From a virus, in the IMG/VR virus record IMGVR_UViG_3300017917_000095, positions 20,898-84,897 of that record: a DNA stretch of 64,000 bases, one strand, 5' to 3'. The notes under the pieces were generated by a model that had not been told where the DNA came from, made no database searches, and saw only the letters and a list, made by a program, of their open reading frames with translations. Of this stretch, positions 33,225 through 61,834 are shown piece after piece. The position numbers and the translations under genes were made by a program. Numbering within the stretch: position 1 is the stretch's first letter; every line of letters starts with the position of its first letter.

Positions 33225-33226
33225 TC

Positions 33227-44511: not shown

Positions 44512-47500
44512 ATGAAAAAAGTAGCAATGATTGGTGTAGGTAAGTTAGGACAAGACTGTGCAGAAGTAATGTCAGACGCAGGGTATGATGTAGTGGGCTA
44601 TGATGTAGCACCCCGTAGTCCTGCTTTCCCAATGCGTAACTCAATTGAGGAAGCAGTCAAAGATAGAGACATGATCTTTATCGCAGCTCCAACACCCCAT
44701 GATCCTATCTATGGTGGAGAGACACCAACAAGTCACTTGCCTAACAAGGACTTTGATTATACCATTGTTACTGAAATTCTAAAAGAAGTTAACAAATACG
44801 TTACTAAGAGTCAATTAGTTGTTCTCATCAGCACAGTGCTACCCGGAACAGTTCGCAATATCCTAGAGCCTTGTATCACTAACGCAAGATTCATTTACAA
44901 CCCTTACCTCATAGCTATGGGTACTGTAAAATGGGACATGGTAAATCCAGAAATGGTAATTATCGGTACAGAGGATGGTAGCCTCACTGGTGATGCTAGT
45001 GAACTAATTGACTTCTACAAGACCTTCATGCAGAATAATCCTCGCTATGAAGTTGGTACATGGGACGAAGCAGAATCAATTAAGATTTTCTATAATACGT
45101 TCATCAGTACAAAGCTTGCACTTGTTAACATGATTCAGGACGTTGCTGAGACTAATGGTAATATCAACGTTGATGTAGTTACAAATGCATTGAAGAAATC
45201 AACATATCGCATCATGGGTCCTGCATATATGACAGCAGCTTTCGGCGATGCAGGAGCATGTCACCCACGTGATAACATTGCACTACGATATCTAACAGAT
45301 AGACTAGACTTGGGCTATGACTTGTTTGATGCTATCATGACTGCACGTGAAGTACAAGCAGAGCGTATGGCATTGCGTTGCTTAAAGAACGGACGTAATG
45401 TTACTATCGTTGGTAAAGCATACAAGCCATGCGTTCCATACACAATCGGATCTGCATCTATGTTAGTGGGCTACTATATTGAGAAGCACGGTGGCAACTT
45501 AAACTACTATGATCCTAACACAGGTGATCTAGACTTGCGTGAAGATTGGACTCAAGTCTATCTGATCGGCTATTGGGAAGAGTGGGTCGAGAAGCTAGAG
45601 TTTAAGGATCCGGGCTGTGTAGTTATTGACCCATGGCGCAAGCTTACAAGCAAGCAACATACAGGGGAAATCATTCACTACGGTGATACACGTCCTAAGA
45701 AAACATACAGTGTTCCTGAGTCTACTATACAAACAATGCGTACTCAAGTCTATGAGATGTTCCCTGAACTAAGACAATATGATAGCGACATTCATCTAGT
45801 TGATGCAACTATCAATATGGATACAACATTTGTTATGCGCCCGACTGAGGCAGTCGTCAAAGAATTACTAGAAGCTAAGGCTAATGGGCGTAGTAAGTTT
45901 ATGTTCTTTGCACCCACAGAAGCATTCATGCCACATGTTGTTTCTAAGGTTCAACGTATTGCTAGCATCCTTGATGGAAAGATCGATGAATCTGATATCA
46001 TCGTTGTTACCGGCGTGATTGACGCCGACGAAATCTACGAGCGTCTTTTAAAAAAAAACGGTTGGAACAAGCGTCTTAACCTCTTAAACTGTCATTTCTT
46101 TAACTACATAACCACTACATATGCCCGTGGATACGAGTATATTGGTGGTTATGATGTACGCTTCCGTGGCAAAATATTCACGTGCTTTAATAAACTGAAC
46201 CGCGAACATCGTCTAGTGATGCTAGAGCGTATGCTACAAACGGGTATGATTAAGAATGGCTACTATTCATTTGAGGGTGAGGGTAATTTCAAAGATACTA
46301 TTCCATCATTGAGTGATGAAAAATTCCCTGCAATCAAGCACAATCAGGACATGTTCCCGTTGCGTTTGAACATCACACCTGATAGACACAACCCAGTTGA
46401 CATTCAACCCGATGACTTGCATTATTACAAGGACAGCTATTTCTCAATCGTAAGTGAGACATTGTTCTATGATAGCAACAGAGTAGGTCAGGCTCATCGT
46501 CCATTCGTTGAGGACTCATTGTTCTTGACAGAGAAAACATATCGTTGCTTTGCAACACTGCACCCATTCATACTGTTAGCAAGACCCCATTCATTAAAAG
46601 AATTGCGTAAGCAGGGCTTCAAGACCTTTGCACCATTCATCAATGAAGCATACGATGATATCGAGAACGATGACCAACGCTTTGAGGCTATCTTCAAAGA
46701 AATCACTAGACTGAATAACTTTACTGGCGATGATTGGACATTGTTCCAAGAAAAGATTAAGCCTATTGTAGAGTACAACAAAGACTTTTTCCATAGTAAC
46801 AAAGACTTTGCTATCACTAAAGACTATCTAAAGTTCTTTGGTCAATTGCAACCAAGAGCATACGTTGAGCCTGTTAGAATCGAATCAGTCATAGAGGCAG
46901 TTAATGAAGCACCTGTGATTCCTACATATATGCAAACTGAGTCTACTATGGGTGACGAATTGCCTACAATGGAAGATATCAGTGAGAAGCTTGACTGGAG
47001 AAACAGACAGTTAGAATATCCTAATGGTATAACACTTAACTTCCCTTGCCACATTGACGGCGGAGGTGATGATTACAAAGATGAATTGATTGCATTGATC
47101 GAACGTACCGGACAGAAAACTAATTATGAATCAGCACTTGATTGGTGTGCAGGTCACGGTCCGTTTGGCTTTGAATTGCTAGCCAACAACATAGCAGATC
47201 ATGTCACATTCCAAGATTGCTATGTTACCGCAGTCGATTCATGCATCAAAAATGGACAAGAGAATAACATAGGTGATAAGGTTACGGGTTATACTTGTGA
47301 CAAGATATCATTGATTCCCGAATCTGAAAAGTTTGATTTGGTAGTAGCAAACCCTCCCCATAGCAATACACTAGAGAATATCGAACGCAATCAATTCTTT
47401 GCCAATACTGCTAGAATGATTGTAGATGACAATTTTGTTATGCACAAAGAGTTCTTTGCAAATATCCATAAATATCTAACTGATGATGCAGATGTGTATA

Positions 47501-47631
47501 TCACAGCAGGAAACAACCTAGCACCTTTTGCTAACTGGGCTTATGCTGGCGGACTAAAGTTTATGGGCTATAGCCCATGCTCGGCAGCACAAGGTGGCAT
47601 CTATCACTTCCGAAAAATTAATCCAAACTGA
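44512..47631 (+). CDS. Fusion: UDP-glucose/GDP-mannose 6-dehydrogenase + GT10-like domain + class I SAM methyltransferase, 1039 aa
   Basis: GVGKLG Rossmann, PTP, STVLPGT, AESIKIFYN (catalytic Lys), GDAGACHPRD (catalytic Cys); middle FTCFNKLNREHR...VSET...TEKTYR...PF...GFKTF; C-terminal LDWCAGHG and DLVVANPPH. Confidence 0.8.
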   Translation: MKKVAMIGVGKLGQDCAEVMSDAGYDVVGYDVAPRSPAFPMRNSIEEAVKDRDMIFIAAPTPHDPIYGGETPTSHLPNKDFDYTIVTEILKEVNKYVTKSQLVVLISTVLPGTVRNILEPCITNARFIYNPYLIAMGTVKWDMVNPEMVIIGTEDGSLTGDASELIDFYKTFMQNNPRYEVGTWDEAESIKIFYNTFISTKLALVNMIQDVAETNGNINVDVVTNALKKSTYRIMGPAYMTAAFGDAGACHPRDNIALRYLTDRLDLGYDLFDAIMTAREVQAERMALRCLKNGRNVTIVGKAYKPCVPYTIGSASMLVGYYIEKHGGNLNYYDPNTGDLDLREDWTQVYLIGYWEEWVEKLEFKDPGCVVIDPWRKLTSKQHTGEIIHYGDTRPKKTYSVPESTIQTMRTQVYEMFPELRQYDSDIHLVDATINMDTTFVMRPTEAVVKELLEAKANGRSKFMFFAPTEAFMPHVVSKVQRIASILDGKIDESDIIVVTGVIDADEIYERLLKKNGWNKRLNLLNCHFFNYITTTYARGYEYIGGYDVRFRGKIFTCFNKLNREHRLVMLERMLQTGMIKNGYYSFEGEGNFKDTIPSLSDEKFPAIKHNQDMFPLRLNITPDRHNPVDIQPDDLHYYKDSYFSIVSETLFYDSNRVGQAHRPFVEDSLFLTEKTYRCFATLHPFILLARPHSLKELRKQGFKTFAPFINEAYDDIENDDQRFEAIFKEITRLNNFTGDDWTLFQEKIKPIVEYNKDFFHSNKDFAITKDYLKFFGQLQPRAYVEPVRIESVIEAVNEAPVIPTYMQTESTMGDELPTMEDISEKLDWRNRQLEYPNGITLNFPCHIDGGGDDYKDELIALIERTGQKTNYESALDWCAGHGPFGFELLANNIADHVTFQDCYVTAVDSCIKNGQENNIGDKVTGYTCDKISLIPESEKFDLVVANPPHSNTLENIERNQFFANTARMIVDDNFVMHKEFFANIHKYLTDDADVYITAGNNLAPFANWAYAGGLKFMGYSPCSAAQGGIYHFRKINPN

Positions 47632-47680: not shown

Positions 47681-49945
47681 TTGGATTTCACGTTAAGATC
47701 ATTGGCTGTTGATGAACTCAAGCCCAAGGAACGCCCTACAGAGGATATCGCAGATGCACGCCATCGTAGTATGATGGAAGCTATTGCGCCTTATGCTAAA
47801 ACAACAGTACAAAAGAACTTGACCCCTGTGTACGTTGACTACAAGACACGCAACACTAAGCTAGTATTGGTACTCTGCCCAGAGTGGAGTCCATATATGC
47901 CCCCATTCAGTTTAGCAAGACTCTCGGGTGTTGCTAAGAGTGCAGGATATGAGACAAACATCATGGACTTGAATGTGAAAGCATACAACAAGTTCAAGAA
48001 TGACTGGTGGCCCAAGCAACGCATACCATTCAGACTATGGGATCCTAGTAGCTCATGGCATTGGTTGGGTGATACGTACTTGAACGACATTCACCCGTTG
48101 TTAGGCCCTGAGATTCTAGGTCCAGCAGTAGATGAAATCATTGCTATGAACCCTGACGTTGTAGGCTTCAGTGTTTACTATATCAGTGAAGAACCTACTA
48201 AGTGGATGTGTCAAGAGATTAAGCGCCGTGCACCTCACATCAAGATTGCAGTCGGTGGCCCTAACGTACACAAGAGTTGGTTCGCAACACACCCATACTA
48301 TGACTATGTTGTTGTAGGTGAAGGTGAACAGAACTTGCTAGTTATGCTAGACGAGATTGAGGAGAAGAAAGAAGTAGAGTATCCTCGCTATCTTACTCAA
48401 CCCGAAGATCAGCGTATCAACATTAACGGCTTACCCATGCCTGACTATGAATCAATCGATTTCAGTCAGTATGAATTGCCCAATGGTGTGAACAGCGAGA
48501 TTAGTCGAGGCTGCACAGCTAAGTGTACATTCTGTGAAGAAACACACTTTTGGAAGTATCGTCAACGTCAAAGTGTTGACTTGATTACAGAGATTGAATG
48601 GTTGTACTACAACAAAGGTACAGACATTATTTGGTTCATTGATAGTCTTATCAATGGCAACCCCAAAGAACTACGTGCGTTTGCATTAGCTCTTAAAGAG
48701 AAAGACTTGAAGGTTAAGTGGACTGGTTATGCTCGTTGTGACGGTCGTATGGACTATGAGTATCTCAAAGACTTAGCAGACGGTGGCTGTATCATGTTCA
48801 ACTTTGGTGTTGAGTCCGGTAGTCAAAAAGTCCTAGACGATATGGCTAAGGGTGTTACTATCAAAGAGATGGAACAGAACTTTATCGACTGTAAGAAAGT
48901 TGGTATATGGGCTGCTACTAACTGGATTGTCGGCTTCCCCACAGAAGAATGGCAAGACTATGCAGACACGATGACGTTCTTGTGGCGTATGCGTAATAAC
49001 AACATCAACAACGCAGGTCTAGGTGTTGGTTATGGTATGGGCCCTGAGACTATTGTAGGTCAGAACCCGCACAAGTTTAATATCAGTTGGCACAAGTATC
49101 AAGGTCACTGGATACGTAATGACTTTACATTCGGTGGCACACACTTAATGATTCGTGTAAAGACATGGCACATGTTTGCTGACTTCTTGCGTGGCGTTAC
49201 AGAAGTACCGATCAGCTATCCTATTCGTACTGCATTAGAGAAAGATCACTATAGGATCAAACTCAATCACGATACTGTGGCAAAGGACGTTGAGTATGAG
49301 AAGTTTGATTATAATATCATTAAGCCCAATCTTAATCCTTTTGCTGATTCACTTGTTAACGAGATGTGGCCTTTTCTGAGGATGCTATGGAAGTGTCGCG
49401 GTGGTTACGAAGCTGAGATACATTTCAATCCTGAGATTGATTTGAAAGAGTTTGGTACACAGTTTGGTCCCGGTATGTTCAATGCTGTATACAAGTTTAA
49501 GATCAGCGATAGCGGTAAGTGGGAAGCAGACTTTGATATGAAGTTTGAGCAGATCGATAACCCATACGATGATCGTGAGCCTCCCCCGGCAGGACGCAAA
49601 GGTCCGTTCTATGCACAAGATTATTCACGCATGATGAGTAACACTGCATTACGTGCCCGTAAGTTAGCAAAGCCTACATGGGATACAACTGAAGGTCGTG
49701 ATGGTCAAGACTTTACTGACCTATTGAATGAAGAAGCAGAACTAAACAAGACAATTGATTTTAGTTTTGATTATCGTTACATTGGCTATGGTAACTGGGG
49801 TGACTATCAAGACTATGAAGTTGCAGTGTCTGATACTTCACGTGAAGTTATCCCTGAGAAGGAAGCAATGAGTGCGTTAGACTTTGCAAAGCAAGTACAG
49901 ACAATCAGTATTGATTCTATCAAACGTAAGAAAGATGTTGAATGA
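47681..49945 (+). CDS. B12-binding domain radical SAM protein, 754 aa (TTG start)
   Basis: AGGAG SD before TTG; DVVGFSVY...VGGP...VGEGE B12-binding segment; SRGCTAKCTFCEE; GVESGSQKVLDDMAKG; NWIVGFPTE. Confidence 0.85.
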   Translation: MDFTLRSLAVDELKPKERPTEDIADARHRSMMEAIAPYAKTTVQKNLTPVYVDYKTRNTKLVLVLCPEWSPYMPPFSLARLSGVAKSAGYETNIMDLNVKAYNKFKNDWWPKQRIPFRLWDPSSSWHWLGDTYLNDIHPLLGPEILGPAVDEIIAMNPDVVGFSVYYISEEPTKWMCQEIKRRAPHIKIAVGGPNVHKSWFATHPYYDYVVVGEGEQNLLVMLDEIEEKKEVEYPRYLTQPEDQRININGLPMPDYESIDFSQYELPNGVNSEISRGCTAKCTFCEETHFWKYRQRQSVDLITEIEWLYYNKGTDIIWFIDSLINGNPKELRAFALALKEKDLKVKWTGYARCDGRMDYEYLKDLADGGCIMFNFGVESGSQKVLDDMAKGVTIKEMEQNFIDCKKVGIWAATNWIVGFPTEEWQDYADTMTFLWRMRNNNINNAGLGVGYGMGPETIVGQNPHKFNISWHKYQGHWIRNDFTFGGTHLMIRVKTWHMFADFLRGVTEVPISYPIRTALEKDHYRIKLNHDTVAKDVEYEKFDYNIIKPNLNPFADSLVNEMWPFLRMLWKCRGGYEAEIHFNPEIDLKEFGTQFGPGMFNAVYKFKISDSGKWEADFDMKFEQIDNPYDDREPPPAGRKGPFYAQDYSRMMSNTALRARKLAKPTWDTTEGRDGQDFTDLLNEEAELNKTIDFSFDYRYIGYGNWGDYQDYEVAVSDTSREVIPEKEAMSALDFAKQVQTISIDSIKRKKDVE

Positions 49946-50544
49946 AAGAAGTCCGTGAATTTGAAGAACTGATTGCTGACTTCTATGGTGCTCCGTATGC
50001 TATCGCTACTGATTGTTGTACTCATGCACTTGAACTATGCCTACGCTTGAATCCTCCAGTCACTACTACAGCCCCGCACCATACATATCTCAGCGTGCCT
50101 ATGACATTAGAGAAGCTAGGACTAGATTGGAAATTCTACAATGCTCAGTGGAAAGACTATTACTATCTAGGCAACACAAACATCATTGACGCCGCAGTAT
50201 ACTGGAAGAAGAATGGTTACATACCCAACACGTTTATGTGTCTAAGCTTTCAGTATCGCAAGCATTTGAACGTGGGTCGCGGCGGCATGATTCTAACTGA
50301 TAACAAAGAGGCTGCACTCAAGCTAAAGAAAATGAGTTATGATGGTCGTGTGCCTGATGTACTCTGGGCTGAACAAGATGTAGATATGTTGGGTTACCAT
50401 TACTACATGACCCCAGAGGCAGCGCAACTAGGCATACAACGGTTCCATGAAATAAAAGACGCACAGCCTAAACGCTGGACATTTAATGATTATCCAGATA
50501 TCAGTAATATGAAAGTTTTTAATGAACAAGATTCAAGTAAGTAA
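49942..50544 (+). CDS. DegT/DnrJ/EryC1/StrS-family PLP aminotransferase, unusually short (200 aa)
   Basis: FEELIADFYGAPYAIATDCCTHALEL, IIDAA (PLP Asp), CLSFQYRKHL (Schiff-base Lys), GRGGMILTD, GYHYYMT. Confidence 0.75.
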   Translation: MKEVREFEELIADFYGAPYAIATDCCTHALELCLRLNPPVTTTAPHHTYLSVPMTLEKLGLDWKFYNAQWKDYYYLGNTNIIDAAVYWKKNGYIPNTFMCLSFQYRKHLNVGRGGMILTDNKEAALKLKKMSYDGRVPDVLWAEQDVDMLGYHYYMTPEAAQLGIQRFHEIKDAQPKRWTFNDYPDISNMKVFNEQDSSK

Positions 50545-51496
50545 GAACGAGTGGGATCCACTAAAGAAAGTAATTGTGGGTCTAGCAGACTTTGCACGTA
50601 TTCCTGATATGGACAAGAGTTTGCGTACTGTAAACTACAGCCATGTCAAAGATGATAGCGAACTACCCAAAGGTACATTGTACCCTGTACAAGTTATACA
50701 AGAAGCTAATGAAGACCTAGATAGACTATCAAGCGAACTAACTAAATTGGGCATTGAAGTCGTGCGCCCAATGAATCGCCCCACTGATTACTACAACTAT
50801 TGTCCACGTGACTTGGCAACAATTATTGACACGAAGGCAATTGTTGCTCCTATGAGTTTGCAATCTCGTAAGGATGATTACAAAAACATAGAGTCAGAAT
50901 TAAAGAACATCTATTATGTACCCAACGATCAGGGTGATAACAACTATAACTTAGGTAGCATTGGTAACAAAGACGTTCTAGCATTGAATGAGTTCTATCC
51001 AAAGTTTGATGCTGCTAACTTGATTCGTGCTAACGATGATATCTTATATCTTGTGAGCAATTCGGGTAATAAGAAAGGTGCATATTATTTGCAAGAGTTG
51101 CTAGGTAGTAAATACAAAGTACATATGCTTGAAGGTGTTTACAGCTACATGCATATTGATAGTACCGTAGCATTTTTGCGTGAGGGTTTGATGTTGTTGA
51201 ATCCTTCGAGGATTCCAGATAAGAGCATATTACCTGCACCCTTTAATACATGGGATGCAATCTATGCTCCTGAACCAGTTGACATTGGGTACATGGGTTA
51301 CAACAACGCAAGTCCTTGGGTAAGCATTAATCTACTGTCTATCAATCCTAACTTAGTTGTTATGGAAGAGCGTCAAGAAAACTTGGCAAGAGAATTAGAG
51401 AAGTATGGTATTGAGTCATTGATGTTGCCAATGCGCCATGCTAGAACATTGGGAGGTTGCTTCCATTGTGTTACGTTAGATTTGATAAGAGGTTGA
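50522..51496 (+). CDS. Amidinotransferase (glycine / inosamine-phosphate amidinotransferase family), 324 aa
   Basis: NEWDPLKKVIVG, YCPRD, FDAAN (Asp), HIDST (His), GGCFHCVTLD (Cys): full catalytic triad. Confidence 0.85.
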   Translation: MNKIQVSKNEWDPLKKVIVGLADFARIPDMDKSLRTVNYSHVKDDSELPKGTLYPVQVIQEANEDLDRLSSELTKLGIEVVRPMNRPTDYYNYCPRDLATIIDTKAIVAPMSLQSRKDDYKNIESELKNIYYVPNDQGDNNYNLGSIGNKDVLALNEFYPKFDAANLIRANDDILYLVSNSGNKKGAYYLQELLGSKYKVHMLEGVYSYMHIDSTVAFLREGLMLLNPSRIPDKSILPAPFNTWDAIYAPEPVDIGYMGYNNASPWVSINLLSINPNLVVMEERQENLARELEKYGIESLMLPMRHARTLGGCFHCVTLDLIRG

Positions 51497-51498
51497 GA

Positions 51499-53277
51499 AT
51501 GGCAGAAAAATGGATGCGTGGTCATGTTAGTAGATTCTGGGATCATGAAGATTACAAGAAGTTTGATTATGTAAAACAACCATTGATGGATTCAGAGATT
51601 GCTACATGGAAATCTCAAGGATACGATTACGTAAAAAGCTTTAGTGGTTCTATGTATGACAATAGAAACCCTATGCCAGAGTGGGTAAAGCGTTTTGATA
51701 AAATCTTCAACCTAAAGAACATGACCTATAATTTCTACAAGATGCAACAGTTAGAAATTATGCCAGAGCACGTAGATCACTTCCAGACATACATGAAGAT
51801 GTTTGATGCGAAGTATCAAAACGTCACTAGGATTCTAGTGATGTTGGAAGACTGGAAGCCCGGTCACTACTTAGAAATTGATGGAGTCGGTGTAGTTAAT
51901 TGGGTAGCAGGTGATTACTTCATGTGGGAAAGTGATGTTCCCCATGCTGCTGCCAACATCGGTACGGAAGATCGCTACACTTTGCAGATCACCGGTACTG
52001 TATTCAAGACAGAAGATGTATACAAGTACATACACTGGTACAACATTCCAGGGCTAGAGACAAAGAAAGAATCGTTGTTCTCACCTGAAATGGATTTCAT
52101 GTATAAGCACATGAGAAAAGAAACTCCATACTACATCTACATGTACAACAGAGAGATTGCAGAGTTAGAAACGATGAAGCATGATCCTGAAGTAGTGGAT
52201 CACTTGAACAAAACAGGTGTGGATATCTATCTGAACGAACCACTATGTTCATATCGTTTGGGTGATAAGCATGGCCCTGATGGTGGTGTTCACTCGTTGA
52301 TTTTTTACAGTGAATTCACCGATGACCAAGTTCAAGATACTCGTTTACTGAGGTCGGTCGAACTGGATAGCATAGAAAAATATGTAACAAATAACAATCT
52401 TACTAATGTCACGGTAAGAACGTGTGACTACAACATTGAGCGTTTCTATACACACTATCTTCCAAAGATGAAATTAGTAACCGACGACCTTTTCTTGAAG
52501 TATTTTGACCTCAATGAATTCGAGCCTCTCACAGAAGAGGAAGAAGACCTCAGTCATTTTACACGCAGATTTGTGTGCATGAATTGGAGATATGCACCGC
52601 ACCGTTTGATAACTGCTGCATATCTAGCCAATAAGATAGACACAGTTAACCTCACATGGTATTTCAAGTCTGATATGGGAACAGTTAGCAAAGAGCCATG
52701 GTACAGCTTCCATGAATGGATTAAGAAAAATCCATCAGCATTCTCTAAGATGATAACAGGTATCAACAAATTGAACAGTGGTTCTCCTTGGAACTTAGAC
52801 CTAGCAGTCAAAGAAGCAACATTAATAGATCAATCTTATTATAAGCGTATGTTCCCTGCAGGGGTTATATTTGACCAAAAAACTACTAAGTTTGGTGACA
52901 ATAAAGATAGACTGAAATATCTCTATCATGATTCCTTCTGTGATGTTGTTACTGAATCGCGTTTTGCACAACCAACTGCAAACTACAGCGAGAAAGTGTA
53001 TCGTCCGATGTATTACAAGAAGCCATTCATTATGGTTGGGCCCCCTCATACACTTGAACACATGAGAGAGCAAGGATTTATGACCTTCAATGACTTCTGG
53101 GATGAATCATATGATTATATCGAAGACCATGAAGAAAGAATGTTTGCAATCTTTAAAGTCATTGATAAGATCAACTCTATGCCTATTCCAGAGTTACAGA
53201 AGATGTACGCTCAGATGAAACACATCGTGGATCATAACAGAAGAACATTGTTAAAAAAATGCCCTAGCAGGTACTAA
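51499..53277 (+). CDS. Fusion: 2OG-Fe(II) oxygenase/cupin-like domain + GT10-like domain
   Basis: PEHVD...PHAAANIG..DRYTLQIT (HxD...H...R); C-terminal FVCMNWRYAPHR, VVTES...SEKVYRP...KPF...GFMTFNDFWDESYD; start ATG 51499 preferred. Confidence 0.65.
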   Translation: MAEKWMRGHVSRFWDHEDYKKFDYVKQPLMDSEIATWKSQGYDYVKSFSGSMYDNRNPMPEWVKRFDKIFNLKNMTYNFYKMQQLEIMPEHVDHFQTYMKMFDAKYQNVTRILVMLEDWKPGHYLEIDGVGVVNWVAGDYFMWESDVPHAAANIGTEDRYTLQITGTVFKTEDVYKYIHWYNIPGLETKKESLFSPEMDFMYKHMRKETPYYIYMYNREIAELETMKHDPEVVDHLNKTGVDIYLNEPLCSYRLGDKHGPDGGVHSLIFYSEFTDDQVQDTRLLRSVELDSIEKYVTNNNLTNVTVRTCDYNIERFYTHYLPKMKLVTDDLFLKYFDLNEFEPLTEEEEDLSHFTRRFVCMNWRYAPHRLITAAYLANKIDTVNLTWYFKSDMGTVSKEPWYSFHEWIKKNPSAFSKMITGINKLNSGSPWNLDLAVKEATLIDQSYYKRMFPAGVIFDQKTTKFGDNKDRLKYLYHDSFCDVVTESRFAQPTANYSEKVYRPMYYKKPFIMVGPPHTLEHMREQGFMTFNDFWDESYDYIEDHEERMFAIFKVIDKINSMPIPELQKMYAQMKHIVDHNRRTLLKKCPSRY

Positions 53278-53279
53278 GT

Positions 53280-53287
53280 TATAAATA
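53280..53287 (+). promoter_or_regulatory. Perfect T4 late promoter consensus TATAAATA
   Basis: Exact match in the short intergenic gap preceding the carbamoyltransferase unit. Confidence 0.7.
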
Positions 53288-53309
53288 CTTAGGACTTAAA
53301 GGGCAAAAC

Positions 53310-53408
53310 ATGTTCATCATCAAATTTTTCAAGAACTTAATCAAAGAGTACAAGTACCGCAAACGCATCAAAGAACTACGTAAACGTGATCCATTCATCT
53401 ATAAGTGA
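53310..53408 (+). CDS. 32-aa basic peptide (not in the ORF track)
   Basis: MFIIKFFKNLIKEYKYRKRIKELRKRDPFIYK; fills the gap between the late promoter and the carbamoyltransferase. Confidence 0.6.
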   Translation: MFIIKFFKNLIKEYKYRKRIKELRKRDPFIYK

Positions 53409-53413
53409 GTCGA

Positions 53414-54892
53414 ATGAACTACGTAGGAATCAGCAACGGTTTCCACGACGCCGGCATCTCAGTCGTGGACTCAAACGGTGACATTCTATTTGCTGGGCAC
53501 AGCGAAAGATACAGCAAACACAAACATGATAAGGACTTGTGCTTAGGTATAGCACAAGATGCCGCATCGTACATTAAGGGTGAATCAGAGATTCACTACT
53601 ACGAACGCCCATGGATGACTGGTCTAAGACAACTCAGAGCAGGCCAGCCTATCAATTTTGCTACAGCTAAAATGCGTATCGGTAAGAATGTTCTAAAAGT
53701 ATTCGGCAATCCAAACGTTACTACACATGAGCATCACCTAAGCCATGTAGCCGCCGGATTTCAAACAAGCCCATACAACGATGCAACTGTGGTAATCATT
53801 GACGCTATCGGTGAGTTTGATTGCATCTCAGTTTGGGATGCATGGTACGATGACAAGGGTTATGCACAATACAAGAAGCTGTGGAGTAAGAAGTATCCGC
53901 ACAGTATTGGTTTGTACTACAGTGCAATGACACAACGAGTGGGACTAAAGCCATTAGATGAAGAATACATTTTAATGGGCATGGCTGCTTATGGCAAGCC
54001 TATACACTTCAATCAGATTGAAGGTCAATTGTTAGAGAATAGCACAACACTAGACTTCAAAGAGAATCTACACATCGGTGTACCTGAAGGCTTTTTAGAA
54101 GGCGCCGATGAAATGGATATTGCCGCTAGCGCACAGGCACTAGTAGAATATCTAATCAAAGCTGTAATGAGCAAAGCACGTATGTTGGGCAAGAGTCGCA
54201 ACCTTGTATATGGTGGTGGTGTTGCTTTGAACTGTCTTGCTAATCGTGAGTTGGGCAAGTACTTTAATGATATGTGGATTGTGCCTAATCCAGGTGATTG
54301 TGGTTCTAGCTTAGGTGCAGCCGCATTAGGATACGGTAAAAGATTGAACTGGAAGGATGCCTTCTTAGGGCATAACATCCCCGGTGATTATCCCAGTAAT
54401 CGTATCATTGACGAGCTAGTTAAGAATAAAATAGTAGGTGTGGCCTCAGGTCGTGCAGAGTTCGGTCCACGTGCGTTGGGCAATAGATCATTGCTTGCAG
54501 ACCCCAGAGGTGATACAATCAAGGATAAAGTAAATGAAATCAAACGCAGACAAAAATTCAGACCCTTTGCGCCCGTTATTTTGGAGGAGCTGGCTCATCA
54601 CTACTTTGATATGCCTAGCAATTGGGATAACAGTCGGTATATGCAAGTCATCGCTCGTTGCAGGTATCCTGAGTTATTTCCTGCTATCGTCCACGCTGAT
54701 GGCACTAGTCGTGTACAGACTGTTCCGAAAGATGGTAGTGGAATTAGAGAACTCCTCGAAAAGTGGTACGTCTTAACTGAATGCCCGATACTGTTAAACA
54801 CCTCTCTCAATATCAGAGGGGAGCCAATGGTCAATGATAGATTCGATGCTGATAGATTCGAAAACCTATACAATGTAAAAGTGATATCGTAA
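53414..54892 (+). CDS. Carbamoyltransferase (NodU/CmcH/TobZ family)
   Basis: GFHDAG, SERYS, HEHHLSH, IDAIGE, LMGMAAYG, GGVALNC, PGDCGSSLGAA, EFGPRALGNRS, KRRQKFRPFAP, HADGTSRVQTV, LLNTSLN; start ATG 53414 (GTG 53405 possible). Confidence 0.92.
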   Translation: MNYVGISNGFHDAGISVVDSNGDILFAGHSERYSKHKHDKDLCLGIAQDAASYIKGESEIHYYERPWMTGLRQLRAGQPINFATAKMRIGKNVLKVFGNPNVTTHEHHLSHVAAGFQTSPYNDATVVIIDAIGEFDCISVWDAWYDDKGYAQYKKLWSKKYPHSIGLYYSAMTQRVGLKPLDEEYILMGMAAYGKPIHFNQIEGQLLENSTTLDFKENLHIGVPEGFLEGADEMDIAASAQALVEYLIKAVMSKARMLGKSRNLVYGGGVALNCLANRELGKYFNDMWIVPNPGDCGSSLGAAALGYGKRLNWKDAFLGHNIPGDYPSNRIIDELVKNKIVGVASGRAEFGPRALGNRSLLADPRGDTIKDKVNEIKRRQKFRPFAPVILEELAHHYFDMPSNWDNSRYMQVIARCRYPELFPAIVHADGTSRVQTVPKDGSGIRELLEKWYVLTECPILLNTSLNIRGEPMVNDRFDADRFENLYNVKVIS

Positions 54893-57800
54893 ATGTTAAG
54901 AGATGTTTTTTATTACGGAAAGAAACCGAATGTTCACCCTAAGGAGAGACCTGCAAAGAATCTAGCTGATGCTAGAAAGCAAGCTACAACTGAACATTTT
55001 TGGATCATCAACGAATTCTGTGATTATACCAATTTCGACTGGGACTTTGATTTCGAGTTCCTGCCTGACCAAGATGTATGGGCAGAAGATCATAACAACG
55101 TTTGGCCTAGCGTACATCAAAAAGACAGTGGTACTTGGTTGTGCCCTAAAACAAAGAGCGAAGTTATCGTATACCGTGCCGATGTTGATTCGTTGAAGCG
55201 TAAGAACATCATCACTGACAATTGGAAGATGCTAGATCACATTGATACTAGTAAATGGGATTTCAGTTGGCACCCTGATCCAACTGACCCTCCCTTCATT
55301 TACAAGTGGGGTTCGAAGTATGCACCTGTTGAACTAAAGACATGTTTAGAATATCATGTTGAAGGTGCCACTCTTGTCAAATACATGAACACCACTGTGG
55401 ACTTGTTACCCAATTGGGATTGCATTGTTGAGGTACAAAAAGTAGATCACAATCATTGGGATATGAGTTGGAGACCAGATCCTCTCGACCCTCCCTTCAT
55501 CTATGTATGGGGCAACAAGTACATCGATGGTCGTTTACGTGCAACATTAGAGTATCATGTTCCGGAAGCAACAGAAAAGAAATATATGCCTGAGTTAGTG
55601 CCTGTTCAACCTGAATGGGATCGTTGGGTATTCTTGCATGAGATAGATAAAACATCATTTGACTTTACTTGGAGACCGGATCCACGTGAGCCTGATTTCA
55701 TATATGTGTTTGGCAACGATCAATACGATGGCACGGTGATGCCTACGATTGAATATCGTATGCCTGGCGCCACTGTGACGAAGTACAACCTTGACAAGAA
55801 AGCCAAACTAGCCCCTCATCCTGAGAAGTTTCAGCACTTAGAAAAGGCTGATGGAATTGATTACAGTTGGGTGCCTGATCCTACATCACCACCTTACATT
55901 TATGCTTGGGGTAATCAATGGAACAAACCAGAAGATAAGGTTTCTATTCAGTATGTAGTAGAAGGCGCAACTGAATACAAGTACATGGAACAACGTGCTA
56001 AACGTAAACCATGCATGGATAACTGGGAAGTACCAGACAATATCGACACAACAGGATTTGATTTCTCATGGGAACCTAGTCCTGCTGATCCTGCATACAT
56101 CTATGAGTTCGGCACACAGTGGCAAAAGACAGGGGGACCTCGTTACGTAGTACCCGGCGCAACTGAAGTCAAGTATGTAGAATTTCAAAAAGCAAAAGCA
56201 TTAGTCAATCCTGTTGCTAAACAAAAGAACTGGTCTGTTCCTAACAATTTAGATATCACTGGATTCGATTTTAGTTGGCATCCGGATGCAACTAGCCCTC
56301 CCTACATCTATCACTTTGCTACACAATGGGCACTAACCGGCGGCCCCATCTATACATGTGATGGCGCAACAGAAGTCAAGTACTTAGAAGAGCCAAGTGC
56401 AATTGCATTACCCGATAAGACAAATTGGAAGTATGACCCTAAGCTGATTGACGAGAATTCATTTGACTTCTCATGGCACCCATACGTAGAAGATCAACCC
56501 TATGTGTATGTCTTTGGTACACAACATCAAAAAACAGGCGGCCCTGTTTATTACACTCCTGGTGCACTATCAACTAGCCCGGTGAAGTATATCGACACCC
56601 GTATCTTACGTGCAACACGATTGCCCAATCGCAAGAACTTTGCGGTGTTGAACAATTATCAAATTGATAACTTTGATTGGTCATGGCATCCAGACGAGAC
56701 AGAAGAATCGTATGTCTATGTGTTTGGTAACAATCAATACTCGGCTGAAATTATGCCTACGATTGAGTATGCAATGCCCGGCGCAAAGCAAATCAAATAC
56801 ATCAACACAGTAAAAGCCACTCTAGGTGCCGATAGAACTAACTGGGTTATCAACCAGCCTATCAATGAATCTACTTTTGATTTTAGCTGGAAGCCTAATC
56901 CCAAAGACCCTCCATACATCTATCGTTGGGGTAACAAATACATCAGCAACAAATATAAGTCTACTATAGATTACGTAGTTCCTGAAGCTACTGAAATCAA
57001 GTACATGGATGATAATGTTGAAGTGCTACCTCAAATGGATCGTTGGGAGATACCATCAGACGTAAGCACAGATGGGTTCGATTTTAGTTGGAGACCTGAC
57101 CCATTAGAGCCCGACTTGATTTGGCAGTTCGGTACTCAATGGCAGAAGACAGGTGGTCCTCGCTATGTAGTACCTGGCGCAACTGAAATCAAATACGTAG
57201 ATATCAAAGTAACTGCACTACCTCAAAAAGAAAAGTTCACTACGTTACACCCAATTGAAAACTTTGACTGGTCATGGCATCCAGATGACACAGAAGAACC
57301 TTTCATCTATGTGTTTGGCAATAATCAGTACCCAGCAGAGATCATGCCTACTGTTGAATACAGAATGCCCGGAGCAACTCAAGTAAAGTATATCAATGAT
57401 GTTAGTGCCAAGTTAGCAGTTGACATGACTAACTGGTCGATCCCTGATGACCTTGATACCTCTGGCTTTGACTTTAGTTGGAAACCTAACCCTAAAGACC
57501 CTGCTTACAATTATGAGTTCGGCACTCAATGGCAGAAGACAGGCGGCCCTCGATATGTAGTAGAAGGATCAACTGAAACAAAGTATGTTGACATGATGAA
57601 AGCAAAGAAACTCCCTAATAAGAGAAACTTTGCAGTCCTTAATAACTACCAGATCAAAGACTTTGATTGGTCATGGCATCCAGATTCAACAGATGAGCCC
57701 TTCATTTACCAATTCGGTAACAATCAGTATCCTGCTGAGATTATGCCTACTATTGAGTACATGGTTGAGGGTGCAATACAGGTCAAATACGTTCATGAAG

Positions 57801-60800
57801 CTATCGCTACGCTCGATGTAGACATGACAAATTGGGAAGTACCTGAGTCAGTCGATACCACTGGCTTTGATTTCTCATGGAAGCCTAATCCCAAAGATCC
57901 GGCTTACAATTATGAGTTCGGCACTCAATGGCAGAAGACAGGTGGGCCTCGTTACCTTGTAACAGATGCAACAGAAACAAAGTATGTTTCTACACAGAAA
58001 GTAAAAGCATTGCCAGTTAAAACTAACTGGACTATCCCTCCTCACATTGATGTTGCTGGATTCGATTTTAGTTGGCATCCAGATGCAACTAGCCCTCCAT
58101 ACGTCTATCACTTTGCTACGCAGTGGGCATTGAGCGGTGGACCTATCTATCGTGTAGATGGTGCAACAGAGGTCAAGTACATGGATGAACTATGTGCCAC
58201 TGCGTTACCTAATAAAGAAAACTGGGAAGTACCGTCAGATGTCAATGTGTCTGCGTTTGACTTCTCATGGCATCCATACGTTGAAGATCAGCCATATATC
58301 TATCAGTTCGGTACACAACATCAAAAGACAGGTGGACCACGGTACATCACGCCGGGTTCAGTCGCTAGCAGTCCGGTCAAGTATATTGACACACGTATTC
58401 TTAAGGCAGAGAAGTTGCCTAATCGCAAGAACTTCAACATTCTTAATAACTACAAGATCAAAGATTTTGATTGGTCATGGCACCCTGATACAACAGATGA
58501 ACCTTTCATCTATGTGTTCGGTAATAATCAGTATCCTGCTGAGATTATGCCTACCCTAGAGTATGCAATGCCGAATGCCAAAGAGATTAAATATGTTCAC
58601 TCAGTTGTTGCAACATTGTCAAGTGACCGCAACAACTGGGAGATTCCAGACAACATTGATGTAACTGAATTTGATTTCAGTTGGAAGCCTAATCCAAAAG
58701 ACCCACCGTACATCTATCAGTTTGGCACACAGCATCAAAAGACAGGTGGCCCTCGTTATGTTGTGCCTGATGCTACTGAGGTTAAGTACGTTGAAGGTAG
58801 CAAAGCTAAAGCATTGCCTACTACTGCGAACTGGATATTACCCAAAGACTTAGACATTGTAGATTTTGACTACTCATGGCATCCTGATAGTACAGAAGCT
58901 GCGTATGAGTACATCTTCCCCACACAATGGCAGTTGACAGGAGGCCCGCGCTACATGGTGCCAGGCTCACAAGAACTCAAGTTCATGGATGGCCCTGTTG
59001 CTACTGTTGGACCAACAACAAAGAATTGGGAAGTCCCTGCTGATATTGTTCTAAAAGATTTTGACTTTAGCTGGCATCCACACCCAGATGATCCTACGTT
59101 TATCTATGAGTTTGCAACGCAGTGGCATGATCGTGGTGGTCCACGCTATATTGCCCCGGGTGCAAACAAAGATACGCCTGTCAAATATATCGACGGTCGT
59201 ATCATTAAAGCGACACTAGGCCCTAACAAGAACAATTGGGTCGCGGCGCAGAAGATTGACGAAGATAAATTTGACTACAGCTGGGTACCTCACCCTAATG
59301 ACCCGCCTTACATATATCGTTGGGGTAACAAGTTTATTAGCGGAGTGTTCAAGCCTACAATAGAGTACCAAGCACCCGGTGCAACTGAATACAAGTACAT
59401 GGATGACAACGTTGAGGTGCTACCTCAATGGGATCGATGGGAGATTCCTGAAGGTATTGATTCAACTGGATTCGATTTTAGTTGGAGACCTGATCCATTA
59501 GAGCCTGACTTGATTTGGCAGTTCGGTACTCAATGGCAGAAGACAGGTGGCCCTCGCTATGTAGTACCTGGTGCAACTGACATTAAGTATATCGATACGA
59601 TGAAGGTCAGAAGGCTCCCTTCTAAGAAGAATTGGTTCAACCCTCAGCAATCAGATGTAACGTTGTTTGATTATAGCTGGCATCCAGACGATACTAATCC
59701 ACCGTACATTTATCAGTTCGGTACATTAGTAGATATGAACGACGGTCCTAGATACATTACTCCTGACTCTACCGGCAACGTAGTATTTTTACAACGGGTA
59801 GAAGTTGATGAAGCTGTTGAGGTTGATGAAGCTCCTTCAGAGGAAATCATTGAAAAGTATTTCATCGAAACAACGTTAGATGATTTAGTTAAGCAACATC
59901 CTAATCAGGTGTTCTGGGCAATGAATAAGAACATTGACTACAGCAAGTTTGATTTCGAATGGAGACCAGAATCATTGAGAGATATGGAATACGTACAAGT
60001 ATTCGGTTCTCCTGACTCAGCATTGACTCATACTTACTTTGTTAACTCTAAGTCTTATGCCGCAGGCAACAAGGACTTCAAGTTCATTGAGAACGCAAAC
60101 CTAGATGAATCATACTTGTCCAGTTTGTTCATTAAGTCTGACATGTTCTTTGTCGATAAAGGTAACAAAGAATCACAAGCACGTTTCGATGAACTAAAGA
60201 ATTTATTCGGTAACAGAATTCAAAAGACTCGTTACTTGAACAGCTGGGTTGATACAATCAATCGCTGTATCAACCGTAGTACTACTGACCTGTGCTGGAT
60301 ACTAAACAGTGAGTTGGATTATAGTAACTTTAACTTTGAATACTATCCTAACCCTTGGCAGATGAAGATGGTTCACGTGTTTGGTACACAGTGGAGTCAT
60401 TGGGGCACAACATTCATGGTCAATCGTGAAACGTTTGCAGCCGATACCAAGTACATCAAGATCATTGAGCACTTGAGTAACTTGAACTTTGTTAAGGATC
60501 GTATTGCAAATGCAACTAACAGAATCTACGATGTAATCTACATCGATCACGGTAACTTGGCTACAGTACCTGGAACTAGTGTCAAGTATGAAGAAAGCTA
60601 TCTAAAGACTTTCAAGAACATGCTAGCTATCTTGCCCGAGAAGAAAGAACATTACGTATGGGTATGCAGCACAGTATGTGATTACACTGGATTTGACTTC
60701 ACATACATTTGCGATCCGTTTGCACGTGACCAGTTGCATGTATTCCCTAGTGATAAGCAAAAGTTCGGAGACACCTTCTTAGTCAATGTCAATAAACTAC

Positions 60801-61834
60801 GTGAATTGATTGATAAGATGACCGTGTTACAAGAGTATGAAAAGATCAACTACAACCAGACTCAACGTGTTAAGCGTTTGCAACCTCCTACAATTGTCAC
60901 TGAGTTTGATACACATGTGGCAAGCGTGATGCAAGACTTTGACTTCCCGTATGCTGTATTTGTTACTGAAGATAACAAGGATATCGTTGCAGTTGAAGAA
61001 GAACCAATGAACTTGTGGGATAAAGAATCTAAGAACATTCTTATTACAAGTACAGGTGGCACACGCATCATTGTTCCCAAAGAAGCAAAGCAGTATGTTG
61101 AGACACAGTTATATGATTACCCGTACATCAAGACTGCATCACGCCTAGCTAAGTCTAAACCACTAGACATTGTTTACTTGAGTAACGGTGAGTCATGTGC
61201 AGAAGAAAACTATGAACACTTGTTGAAGGTGACAAAGGGCTTGCCTAATAGAATCGTTCGTGTCGATGGAATCAACGGTCGTGTTGAAGCATATCATGCT
61301 GCCGCAGAAGCAAGTGAAACACCTTGGATGTTCACTGTGTTTGCTAAGTTGAAATTGAATGCCAAGTTTGACTTTAACTGGCAACCAGATAGACTACAAA
61401 TTCCTAAACACTATATGTTCTTAGCCAAGAACCCCGTTAACGGTTTGATCTATGGCCACCAAGGTATGATTGCATACAATAAGCAAATGACATTAGACAA
61501 TCCCGGATATGGTCTAGACTTCACATTAGATAGTCCACATGAAACGATTGAATTGCTATCAGGTATCACAACGTATAACACTGACGAATGGGCTACATGG
61601 CGCACAGCGTTCCGTGAAGTCATCAAGCTAAAGAAAGAGAACTCAGAGATTAGCTTGAAGCGTTTGGATGCTTGGTTAAACAAAGCAGAAGGTAACTTTG
61701 CTGAGTATTCACTAGATGGTGCCCGTCATGGTGTCGAGTATTTTGAAGAAGTAGAAGGCAAGACAGACAAGTTGCGTTTGAGTTACGAATGGTCTTGGCT
61801 GCGTCAACGATTCGATGAAAAGTATAAGAAATGA
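54893..61834 (+). CDS. 2313-aa repeat protein: ~23 Trp/Pro-rich repeats plus degenerate C-terminal GT-A-like modules
   Basis: Repeat consensus NWxxPxxxDxxxFDFSWxPxxxxPxYIYxFGxQWxxxGGPxYxxxGATExKY; C-terminal LDIVYLSNGE...RVDGINGRVEAYHAAA...NPVNGLIYGHQG...WRTAFREVIKL resembles 28410..29363. Confidence 0.75.
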   Translation: MLRDVFYYGKKPNVHPKERPAKNLADARKQATTEHFWIINEFCDYTNFDWDFDFEFLPDQDVWAEDHNNVWPSVHQKDSGTWLCPKTKSEVIVYRADVDSLKRKNIITDNWKMLDHIDTSKWDFSWHPDPTDPPFIYKWGSKYAPVELKTCLEYHVEGATLVKYMNTTVDLLPNWDCIVEVQKVDHNHWDMSWRPDPLDPPFIYVWGNKYIDGRLRATLEYHVPEATEKKYMPELVPVQPEWDRWVFLHEIDKTSFDFTWRPDPREPDFIYVFGNDQYDGTVMPTIEYRMPGATVTKYNLDKKAKLAPHPEKFQHLEKADGIDYSWVPDPTSPPYIYAWGNQWNKPEDKVSIQYVVEGATEYKYMEQRAKRKPCMDNWEVPDNIDTTGFDFSWEPSPADPAYIYEFGTQWQKTGGPRYVVPGATEVKYVEFQKAKALVNPVAKQKNWSVPNNLDITGFDFSWHPDATSPPYIYHFATQWALTGGPIYTCDGATEVKYLEEPSAIALPDKTNWKYDPKLIDENSFDFSWHPYVEDQPYVYVFGTQHQKTGGPVYYTPGALSTSPVKYIDTRILRATRLPNRKNFAVLNNYQIDNFDWSWHPDETEESYVYVFGNNQYSAEIMPTIEYAMPGAKQIKYINTVKATLGADRTNWVINQPINESTFDFSWKPNPKDPPYIYRWGNKYISNKYKSTIDYVVPEATEIKYMDDNVEVLPQMDRWEIPSDVSTDGFDFSWRPDPLEPDLIWQFGTQWQKTGGPRYVVPGATEIKYVDIKVTALPQKEKFTTLHPIENFDWSWHPDDTEEPFIYVFGNNQYPAEIMPTVEYRMPGATQVKYINDVSAKLAVDMTNWSIPDDLDTSGFDFSWKPNPKDPAYNYEFGTQWQKTGGPRYVVEGSTETKYVDMMKAKKLPNKRNFAVLNNYQIKDFDWSWHPDSTDEPFIYQFGNNQYPAEIMPTIEYMVEGAIQVKYVHEAIATLDVDMTNWEVPESVDTTGFDFSWKPNPKDPAYNYEFGTQWQKTGGPRYLVTDATETKYVSTQKVKALPVKTNWTIPPHIDVAGFDFSWHPDATSPPYVYHFATQWALSGGPIYRVDGATEVKYMDELCATALPNKENWEVPSDVNVSAFDFSWHPYVEDQPYIYQFGTQHQKTGGPRYITPGSVASSPVKYIDTRILKAEKLPNRKNFNILNNYKIKDFDWSWHPDTTDEPFIYVFGNNQYPAEIMPTLEYAMPNAKEIKYVHSVVATLSSDRNNWEIPDNIDVTEFDFSWKPNPKDPPYIYQFGTQHQKTGGPRYVVPDATEVKYVEGSKAKALPTTANWILPKDLDIVDFDYSWHPDSTEAAYEYIFPTQWQLTGGPRYMVPGSQELKFMDGPVATVGPTTKNWEVPADIVLKDFDFSWHPHPDDPTFIYEFATQWHDRGGPRYIAPGANKDTPVKYIDGRIIKATLGPNKNNWVAAQKIDEDKFDYSWVPHPNDPPYIYRWGNKFISGVFKPTIEYQAPGATEYKYMDDNVEVLPQWDRWEIPEGIDSTGFDFSWRPDPLEPDLIWQFGTQWQKTGGPRYVVPGATDIKYIDTMKVRRLPSKKNWFNPQQSDVTLFDYSWHPDDTNPPYIYQFGTLVDMNDGPRYITPDSTGNVVFLQRVEVDEAVEVDEAPSEEIIEKYFIETTLDDLVKQHPNQVFWAMNKNIDYSKFDFEWRPESLRDMEYVQVFGSPDSALTHTYFVNSKSYAAGNKDFKFIENANLDESYLSSLFIKSDMFFVDKGNKESQARFDELKNLFGNRIQKTRYLNSWVDTINRCINRSTTDLCWILNSELDYSNFNFEYYPNPWQMKMVHVFGTQWSHWGTTFMVNRETFAADTKYIKIIEHLSNLNFVKDRIANATNRIYDVIYIDHGNLATVPGTSVKYEESYLKTFKNMLAILPEKKEHYVWVCSTVCDYTGFDFTYICDPFARDQLHVFPSDKQKFGDTFLVNVNKLRELIDKMTVLQEYEKINYNQTQRVKRLQPPTIVTEFDTHVASVMQDFDFPYAVFVTEDNKDIVAVEEEPMNLWDKESKNILITSTGGTRIIVPKEAKQYVETQLYDYPYIKTASRLAKSKPLDIVYLSNGESCAEENYEHLLKVTKGLPNRIVRVDGINGRVEAYHAAAEASETPWMFTVFAKLKLNAKFDFNWQPDRLQIPKHYMFLAKNPVNGLIYGHQGMIAYNKQMTLDNPGYGLDFTLDSPHETIELLSGITTYNTDEWATWRTAFREVIKLKKENSEISLKRLDAWLNKAEGNFAEYSLDGARHGVEYFEEVEGKTDKLRLSYEWSWLRQRFDEKYKK
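55220..59790 (+). repeat. Intragenic tandem array of ~23 units of ~200 nt (~65-70 aa)
   Basis: 23 counted (F/W/I)D(F/W/Y/M)(S/T)WxP cores; near-identical DNA blocks, e.g. 57077-57186 vs 59471-59580. Confidence 0.85.

Follow-up and report, generated by a model that had tools for sequence, protein, structure and literature searches.

The streptidine route proceeds by oxidation, transamination and amidination, carried out in turn by the dehydrogenase StrI, by StsC, a member of the DegT family, and by StrB1, the L-arginine:inosamine-phosphate amidinotransferase of Streptomyces griseus. A related succession is known from nucleoside antibiotics, in which the 2-oxoglutarate (2OG) oxygenase LipL acts before the aminotransferase LipO. 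Here, a block of phage genes that combines such steps is described from IMG/VR virus record IMGVR_UViG_3300017917_000095, an 84.9-kb viral contig (CheckV completeness about 15%) of an uncultured giant T4-like phage. The stretch analysed, referred to as the window, comprises 64 kb of this contig (positions 20,898 to 84,897). The block encodes a half-size DegT-family aminotransferase (mini-DegT), an amidinotransferase, an oxygenase fused to a domain with the GT-B glycosyltransferase fold, and an O-carbamoyltransferase (Table 1). With moderate confidence, the region is read as a soluble, cytoplasmic sugar-tailoring module within a phage glycan-building island, where it would make a guanidino sugar.

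The phage module shares with the StrI/StsC/StrB1 steps the partnership with a DegT-family enzyme and the oxidation-transamination-amidination logic, and its amidinotransferase shares with StrB1 both the full length and the Cys-His-Asp set. It differs in that the amidinotransferase belongs to a separate phage-only clade, the aminotransferase is half-size, and neither a kinase nor cyclitol genes lie nearby. The streptidine route oxidises with an NAD dehydrogenase, whereas the oxidation partner of the phage module is a 2OG oxygenase. The module is embedded in a glycosyltransferase island, and the phage acceptor is probably a nucleotide sugar. Among cultured phages, a close homologue of the amidinotransferase is found only in Synechococcus phage S-SCSM2R, which carries a trio of mini-DegT (ORF305, 57% identity), oxygenase (ORF308, 37%) and amidinotransferase (ORF309, 61%). 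ORF305, ORF306 and ORF309 were listed by its authors as separate 'antibiotic synthesis genes' (PMC12801897); the window phage differs from this arrangement in its attached carbamoyltransferase and in the fusion of its oxygenase to the GT-B domain. In the window, the island adjoins baseplate and fibre genes, as does the host recognition cluster known from pelagi- and cyanomyophages (PMC7029224). Neither paper recognises one conserved module or proposes a guanidino sugar.

The amidinotransferase aligns end to end with StrB1 (PDB 1bwd; phmmer E 1.2e-64, residues 8-323 to 7-339), and in the same comparison with PDB sequences the values fall to 1e-37 for HsvA and to between 1e-29 and 1e-30 for AGAT and SxtG. 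Residues D97, D163, H211, D213, H315 and C316 are invariant in 14 homologues and correspond to D108, D179, H227, D229, H331 and C332 of StrB1. Neither a Pfam family (E <= 0.01) nor an NCBIfam model matched the protein, these models being insensitive here; despite the missing Pfam match, the alignment to 1bwd is regarded as decisive for its predicted identity. Phylogenetically, the 36 phage amidinotransferases compared group in a single clade (support of 100 in the Shimodaira-Hasegawa-like approximate likelihood ratio test, SH-aLRT) apart from 80 bacterial StrB1-like sequences, Streptomyces included, which are at most 51% identical to the phage enzymes. A glycine-type amidinotransferase (AGAT, CyrA or SxtG) was rejected on the E-value gap and the tree. 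An earlier reading made from the letters alone (the sequence-only reading) had seen here an intact enzyme recalling StrB1, and the full-length match and invariant catalytic residues agree with it. Comparison with StrB1, AGAT and SxtG places the protein as StrB1-like in a phage-only clade of its own, and an enzyme that uses glycine only, which would have told against that reading, is not borne out by the sequence, StrB1 scoring far above the glycine-type enzymes.

The gene for mini-DegT runs into that for the amidinotransferase. Its product matches DegT_DnrJ_EryC1 (PF01041) at E 1.3e-17 and 64.5 bits, against a gathering cut-off of 19.8, and covers about half of the 360-position profile (roughly positions 40-265). 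Two residues, Asp83 (the pyridine-N aspartate) and Lys107 (the Schiff-base lysine), do not vary among 64 homologues, and both line up with the motif of perosamine synthetase. At 200 residues the protein does not show the two-domain DegT architecture of about 360-400 residues. Judged from sequence, mini-DegT is a defined half-size family and no fragment, because its best 120 metagenome homologues are all 194-202 residues long and the catalytic residues are invariant. With the DegT/DnrJ/EryC1/StrS aminotransferases (for example perosamine synthetase, 3bn1, and WbpE, 3nu7) it shares the Pfam family and the lysine and aspartate that serve pyridoxal phosphate (PLP), and some of its members adjoin 4,6-dehydratases, as do the classic enzymes. 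Those enzymes, however, are 360-400 residues long, and mini-DegT has only a portion of their large domain and nothing of the C-terminal one. A DegT-type aminotransferase gene overlapping the amidinotransferase gene had been recognised by the sequence-only reading; family and overlap stand, while the half size of the protein had been missed.

The third gene encodes a fusion protein whose start is probably the ATG at 51499, because the closest relative, contig L002, aligns from there. In its N-terminal part, H105, D107, H163 and R173 (HxD...H...R, numbered from the TTG at 51457) are invariant in 58 homologues. The modelled residues 1-168 (predicted local distance difference test, pLDDT, 89.5) form a double-stranded beta-helix, whose best fold match is 3dkq (Z 14.3, root-mean-square deviation (rmsd) 2.9 Å over 149 aligned residues), with PiuC, SnoN and prolyl 4-hydroxylase (P4H) at Z 13-14. 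PF05118 is matched weakly by 19 of 22 members of the oxygenase family; a profile of that family found nothing significant among PDB sequences, and the whole fusion protein had no match in PDB by sequence. For the C-terminal part, all top fold matches are GT-B glycosyltransferases (Foldseek probability 0.99-1.0), with VIA Z values of 8-10, the best being Z 10.0 at an rmsd of 5.1 Å over 265 aligned residues. Among these matches the GT10 fucosyltransferases 5zoi (Z 9.2) and 8d0o (Z 8.4) do not stand out, being tied with numerous further GT-B families. In other loci the GT-B domain is either fused to the oxygenase or encoded by the adjacent gene. The oxygenase of the sequence-only reading is therefore a real domain, but it does not stand alone, the fused GT-B domain having gone unnoticed.

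The association of these genes extends far beyond the window. A degenerate-pattern scan of IMG/VR with the amidinotransferase alignment confirmed at least 582 relatives, so that the phage-clade enzyme is present in at least 582 IMG/VR contigs. In 85 fetched loci, the amidinotransferase was accompanied by mini-DegT in 73, the oxygenase in 77, the dehydrogenase in 30 and the carbamoyltransferase in 29. Two architectures can be distinguished. In the cyanophage type, a P4H-like oxygenase and three to four GT25-like genes are combined with mini-DegT, oxygenase, amidinotransferase and, optionally, a glycosyltransferase (GT) and a carbamoyltransferase, the trio being interleaved with 3-5 glycosyltransferase-like genes. 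The window type, seen in about 20 contigs of jumbo phages, one of them a complete genome of 364 kb that has terminal repeats, shows the order dehydrogenase, B12-radical S-adenosylmethionine (SAM) enzyme, mini-DegT, amidinotransferase, oxygenase, GT-B, carbamoyltransferase and giant repeat protein, the oxygenase being either fused to GT-B or followed by GT-B as the next gene. The grouping, which recurs in dozens of diverged phage contigs, is not due to chance; the enzyme families, the intact catalytic residues, the coupling of the genes and the pattern of their conservation are all directly observed.

A scan with the mini-DegT alignment confirmed 590 relatives, among which 91 loci were compared, each having a unique mini-DegT sequence and flanks no shorter than 4 kb on both sides; partners were counted within 6 kb. 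The oxygenase was found in 73 of the 76 loci with an amidinotransferase versus 2 of the 15 without, so that the amidinotransferase is almost always accompanied by a DegT-family enzyme and an oxygenase, as the sequence-only reading had grouped them. The opposite holds for a nucleoside diphosphate (NDP)-sugar 4,6-dehydratase (2/76 versus 12/15). The carbamoyltransferase (32/76 versus 0/15) is a recurrent accessory, confined among the 91 to amidinotransferase-bearing loci. In loci that lack the amidinotransferase, mini-DegT is translationally coupled, by overlap, to a set of classic sugar genes that comprises a 4,6-dehydratase of the GDP-mannose-dehydratase family (E 1e-110), a WxcM-type cupin, a TylC3-like sugar C-methyltransferase, a short-chain dehydrogenase/reductase (SDR) and a GT2 glycosyltransferase with tetratricopeptide repeats (GT2-TPR). 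By its gene content, this arrangement is a textbook nucleotide-deoxy-amino-sugar operon. The mini-DegT family is taken to work on nucleotide keto-sugars because it is coupled to such genes, which is the strongest evidence available here.

Several observations stand beside this distribution. An origin of the whole module in bacteria was rejected, as the partners are absent from 80 bacterial loci save for two contigs from Pseudobdellovibrionaceae metagenome-assembled genomes (MAGs). These contigs, L086 (11 kb) and L154 (8 kb), carry a phage-type amidinotransferase with mini-DegT, L086 also holding homologues of radical SAM and GT-like proteins of the window; both are probably phage contigs binned into MAGs. 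In S-SCSM2R, ORF235 (L168:4828-6420), recorded as a '2OG-Fe(II) oxygenase', aligns with the carbamoyltransferase query along 90% of its length and is probably a mis-annotated carbamoyltransferase; a wcaG RNA motif precedes it, and it stands at the head of another cluster of sugar genes. Elsewhere in the same phage, ORF266-269 (L168:27354-30337) include another, only distantly related 'glycine amidinotransferase', with 2OG oxygenases and KdsA/KdsB next to it, and ORF266 and ORF269 were detected in purified virions (PMC12801897).

The pathway that these genes suggest would begin with the Fe(II)/2OG oxygenase, which would oxidise a carbinol C-H of a nucleotide sugar supplied by host or phage, perhaps a uronic acid from the neighbouring NDP-sugar dehydrogenase, to a ketone. 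Here the oxygenase would take the place of the dehydratase as the source of the keto-sugar. Mini-DegT would then transaminate the ketone to an amine, and the amidinotransferase would transfer the amidino group of L-arginine to this amine by the covalent Cys-His-Asp mechanism, giving a guanidino sugar. The fused GT-B domain may pass the sugar to a growing glycan, and the O-carbamoyltransferase, a frequent accessory, may carbamoylate a free hydroxyl. The B12-radical SAM enzyme encoded upstream probably C-methylates, carbamoyl and methyl groups being optional decorations. A sugar substrate and the order keto to amino to guanidino, as outlined by the sequence-only reading, are the most economical choice because mini-DegT without the amidinotransferase sits in NDP-deoxy-amino-sugar operons; the position of the oxygenase step within that scheme, however, is not fixed. 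The complementary pattern of dehydratase and oxygenase fits an oxygenase that serves as the alternative keto source, or one whose step is tied to the guanidine.

A number of points weigh against this pathway. The substrate of StrB1 is a phosphorylated cyclitol and no nucleotide sugar, and mini-DegT, as far as its sequence extends, is without the C-terminal domain that helps nucleotide-sugar binding in full-size DegT enzymes. Guanidino sugars are not known from glycoconjugates. The GT-B assignment is made purely by fold, on a predicted model with Z 8-10. The 91 loci were sampled by similarity to the window, and the dehydratase and oxygenase contexts need only two to three switches on the mini-DegT tree; because of this small number of evolutionary switches, Fisher p-values overstate independence, and the context association is real but comprises few independent events. 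Finally, the oxygenase might come into play only once the amidinotransferase has acted, or might have the acceptor as its substrate, as the tight coupling of the genes leaves the order unfixed.

This last point leads to the alternative that survives best, although we consider it unlikely. Amination and amidination would proceed as proposed, but the oxygenase would have as its target for hydroxylation either the guanidino sugar or the acceptor, for instance the side chain of a protein, which the GT-B domain would then glycosylate; this would be akin to the fusions of lysyl hydroxylase and glycosyltransferase that act on collagen. The source of the keto group would instead be a dehydrogenase, an SDR or a radical SAM dehydrogenase. 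The fusion indeed has the architecture of a hydroxylase joined to a glycosyltransferase, prolyl hydroxylases and the sugar-acting SnoN and SnoK are among the best fold matches of the oxygenase, NDP-sugar dehydrogenase, SDR and small radical SAM genes often neighbour the module, and the cyanophage-type cassette is flanked by P4H-like oxygenases and GT25-like genes. Yet the commonest cassette (P4H, three to four GT25, DegT, oxygenase, amidinotransferase) offers no other candidate for the oxidation step, and the oxygenase tracks the amidinotransferase, not glycosyltransferases generally. Collagen-like repeats, sought in the giant proteins as possible targets of hydroxylation, were not found.

A somewhat less probable alternative holds that the product of the module is a small soluble molecule of aminocyclitol or aminoglycoside type, for instance a derivative of guanidino-inositol, that would serve as antibiotic or signal. 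The closest solved relative of the amidinotransferase is, after all, an inosamine-phosphate amidinotransferase, scyllo-inosose aminotransferases belong to the DegT family, the neighbourhood includes Twitch/SPASM radical SAM enzymes as well as a carbamoyltransferase resembling TobZ, and the S-SCSM2R homologues have been annotated as antibiotic synthesis genes (PMC12801897). Against this, neither inositol-phosphate synthase nor inositol dehydrogenase nor a kinase turned up among the conserved neighbours, the module lies inside glycosyltransferase-rich islands and its oxygenase is joined to a GT-B domain, mini-DegT is otherwise met in nucleotide-sugar operons, and the phage amidinotransferases stand apart from the sampled bacterial StrB1-like sequences, those of Streptomyces among them.

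The carbamoyltransferase bears on a further alternative. Both Pfam domains of the family are present (Carbam_trans_C 4.7e-47, Carbam_trans_N 1.4e-35), it matches PHROG 1601 at 3.3e-90 over residues 4-482 and the novobiocin, GdmN and TobZ carbamoyltransferases in PDB at 1e-35 to 1e-46, and its sequence contains the HHxxH...D metal motif. The phage enzyme thus shares with TobZ, NodU, NovN and GdmN the Kae1-like and YrdC-like domains and the metal motif; those proteins are 570-700 residues long, whereas it has 492, and it is 27-49% identical to other phage carbamoyltransferases. In the region 53278-53408, the gene is preceded by a spacer of 127 nucleotides, the sole intergenic spacer of the block, in which lies the motif TATAAATA; there are two copies of TATAAATA in the whole window, and it is kept in the relatives L002, L171 and L180. 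This motif by itself suggests that the carbamoyltransferase is probably part of a separate late transcription unit, in which its transcription, along with that of a micro-ORF (open reading frame) and the 2313-residue repeat protein, would start from a separate late-promoter-like site. The micro-ORF differs from its counterpart in L002, a 92%-related contig, by eight substitutions, seven of them synonymous, and its C-terminal motif KRDPFIYK is found again ahead of the carbamoyltransferase gene in 8 diverged loci. No Pfam family matched the peptide; the ORF may encode a small protein or serve as a leader with a regulatory role. The sequence-only reading was right about the family of the O-carbamoyltransferase; the gene is set apart from the preceding ones by the spacer with its promoter-like motif and micro-ORF, a probable separate late unit that this reading had missed.

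Table 1. Features of the window, followed by operons in which mini-DegT occurs without the amidinotransferase (aa, amino acids; nt, nucleotides; pTM, predicted template modelling score; RiPP, ribosomally synthesised and post-translationally modified peptide)
Feature	Position	Strand	Basis or remark
Mini-DegT, 200-aa PLP-dependent sugar-aminotransferase-family protein	49942..50544	+	Pfam PF01041
StrB1-like L-arginine-dependent amidinotransferase, 324 aa	50522..51496	+	overlaps mini-DegT gene by 23 nt
Fusion protein	51457/51499-53277	+	probable start 3 nt past amidinotransferase stop
Fe(II)/2OG oxygenase domain, N-terminal 168 residues	51499..52038	+	motif and double-stranded beta-helix fold
GT-B-fold glycosyltransferase-like domain, C-terminal 410 residues	52039..53277	+	AlphaFold pLDDT 81.5, pTM 0.87
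TATAAATA, T4-type late-promoter-like motif	53280..53287	+	sequence motif
32-codon ORF (micro-ORF), basic peptide ending ...KRDPFIYK	53310..53408	+	directly upstream of carbamoyltransferase
NodU/CmcH/TobZ-family O-carbamoyltransferase, 495/492 aa	53405/53414-54892	+	Pfam, PHROG, PDB
2313-aa repeat protein	54893..61834	+	start abuts carbamoyltransferase stop; about 22 tandem repeats of about 66 aa
B12-binding radical SAM enzyme, methyltransferase-like	47681..49945	+	Pfam B12-binding and Radical_SAM; NCBIfam PhpK/RiPP C-methyltransferase-like
NDP-sugar dehydrogenase, GT-B-like middle and class I methyltransferase fusion	44512..47631	+	Pfam UDPG_MGDP_dh_N and central domains, MTS
T4-type baseplate wedge gene	opens window		PHROG 10646, E 4e-260
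6529-aa ORF	start of window		with baseplate wedge gene
Mini-DegT operons lacking the amidinotransferase	L186:8407-13693, L213:8602-11577, L219:9029-11568		

The sequence-only reading had kept open a DNA target of the carbamoyltransferase, and the whole module might be thought to hypermodify phage DNA, yielding carbamoyl- or glycosyl-5-hydroxymethylpyrimidines or an amidinated amino-alkyl base. The tied fold matches of the GT-B domain include, at Z 9.5, both T4 DNA glucosyltransferases (alpha and beta), and 5-hydroxymethylcytosine (5hmC) in the DNA of metagenomic phages is carbamoylated by a NodU-family enzyme, likewise phage-encoded and of the same family as that of the window (PMC8670742). 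That system, however, is defined by a dCMP-hydroxymethylase-type partner, the published enzyme co-occurring with a thymidylate synthase homologue that has Asp at E. coli position 177, while carbamoyltransferases on unmodified contigs adjoin glycosyltransferases (PMC8670742), as does the enzyme of the window. Searches for a DNA route covered the contig of the window and up to five relatives, and no such partner was found in them. A thymidylate synthase homologue (PF00303) had no match on the contig of the window, and the contig of L002 and three more relatives, one of them complete (364 kb, with terminal repeats), hold a single one each, with the canonical Asn177 and His147. No cytosine-C5 methyltransferase was found in the contig and relatives searched, nor was there a match to Tet/JBP, for which the control also matched nowhere. 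The trio occurs in a T4-like cyanophage as well, and T4-like cyanophages are not known to contain hydroxymethylpyrimidines. With relatives, a complete genome among them, that hold canonical thymidylate synthase only and no C5-methylase, a DNA target appears unlikely from the gene content, and hypermodification of DNA by the module as a whole is very improbable.

The surroundings of the block are those of a sugar-gene island. Between 23.9 and 62.9 kb of the window, an almost gap-free run of plus-strand genes encodes radical SAM enzymes, an SDR, the NDP-sugar dehydrogenase fusion, GT-like proteins and the four module genes, all four of which are real, intact and tightly coupled, at the coordinates given by the sequence-only reading. 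A search for hydrophobic stretches of transmembrane strength found no island protein with a predicted membrane segment. The dehydrogenase fusion matches the NCBIfam model 'nucleotide sugar dehydrogenase' at 6.7e-40, and a homologue lies within 6 kb of the amidinotransferase in 29 of the 76 loci that have one. The B12-radical SAM gene, whose product is 93% identical in L002, is present in 25 of these 76 and, in blocks of the window type, is conserved as the neighbour on the upstream side. For the small radical SAM partner the best PDB match is 7wzv, BtrN reaching only E 0.027, and the radical SAM protein at 34483-35475 had no match in PDB. Three tandem radical SAM genes at 30766-34498 depart from the usual domain order: by their Pfam coordinates, SPASM comes first and the radical SAM core lies C-terminal to it. 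Downstream, the 2313-residue repeat protein is translationally coupled to the carbamoyltransferase, and homologues follow the carbamoyltransferase in many window-type loci. It has no Pfam match; its repeats show the consensus FDFSW-x-PDP...YIY-x-FG...GGP-x-Y...KY, and a separate C-terminal module of 670 residues matches only viral hypothetical clusters in the ESM Atlas. A megablast of the region against cultured phages gave no match.

For the guanidino sugar that the module would make, the most likely acceptor is a macromolecule of the phage in the cytoplasm, for example a fibre protein, or alternatively a precursor of the host envelope. In three complete module-bearing genomes neither an initiating phosphoglycosyl transferase nor a Wzx-type flippase was found, and because these are missing and all enzymes are soluble, a cytoplasmic acceptor, for example a virion protein, is mildly favoured over de novo synthesis of O-antigen; hijacking of host lipid-linked intermediates is conceivable as well. 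The wider proposal can be put forward only tentatively, namely that aquatic T4-like and jumbo phages build guanidino-sugar glycans through a self-contained conversion by oxygenase, 200-residue aminotransferase and amidinotransferase, that the sugar is often O-carbamoylated, and that it is attached in the cytoplasm to a phage structural protein, the giant fibre or repeat proteins beside the island being candidates. Overall, the interpretation given by the sequence-only reading is partly supported, and the chemistry is known chemistry in a new variant. The question is directly testable because the cultured Synechococcus phage S-SCSM2R carries the trio.

If the proposal is true, the module would add to glycobiology a new type of sugar, guanidino and often carbamoylated, and would provide two compact biocatalysts, a sugar aminotransferase of 200 residues and a transferase that turns amines of sugars into guanidines. 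Hundreds of abundant phages of lakes and oceans would then decorate something with a permanently cationic glycan, which could affect adsorption, host range, superinfection exclusion and resistance to host defences.

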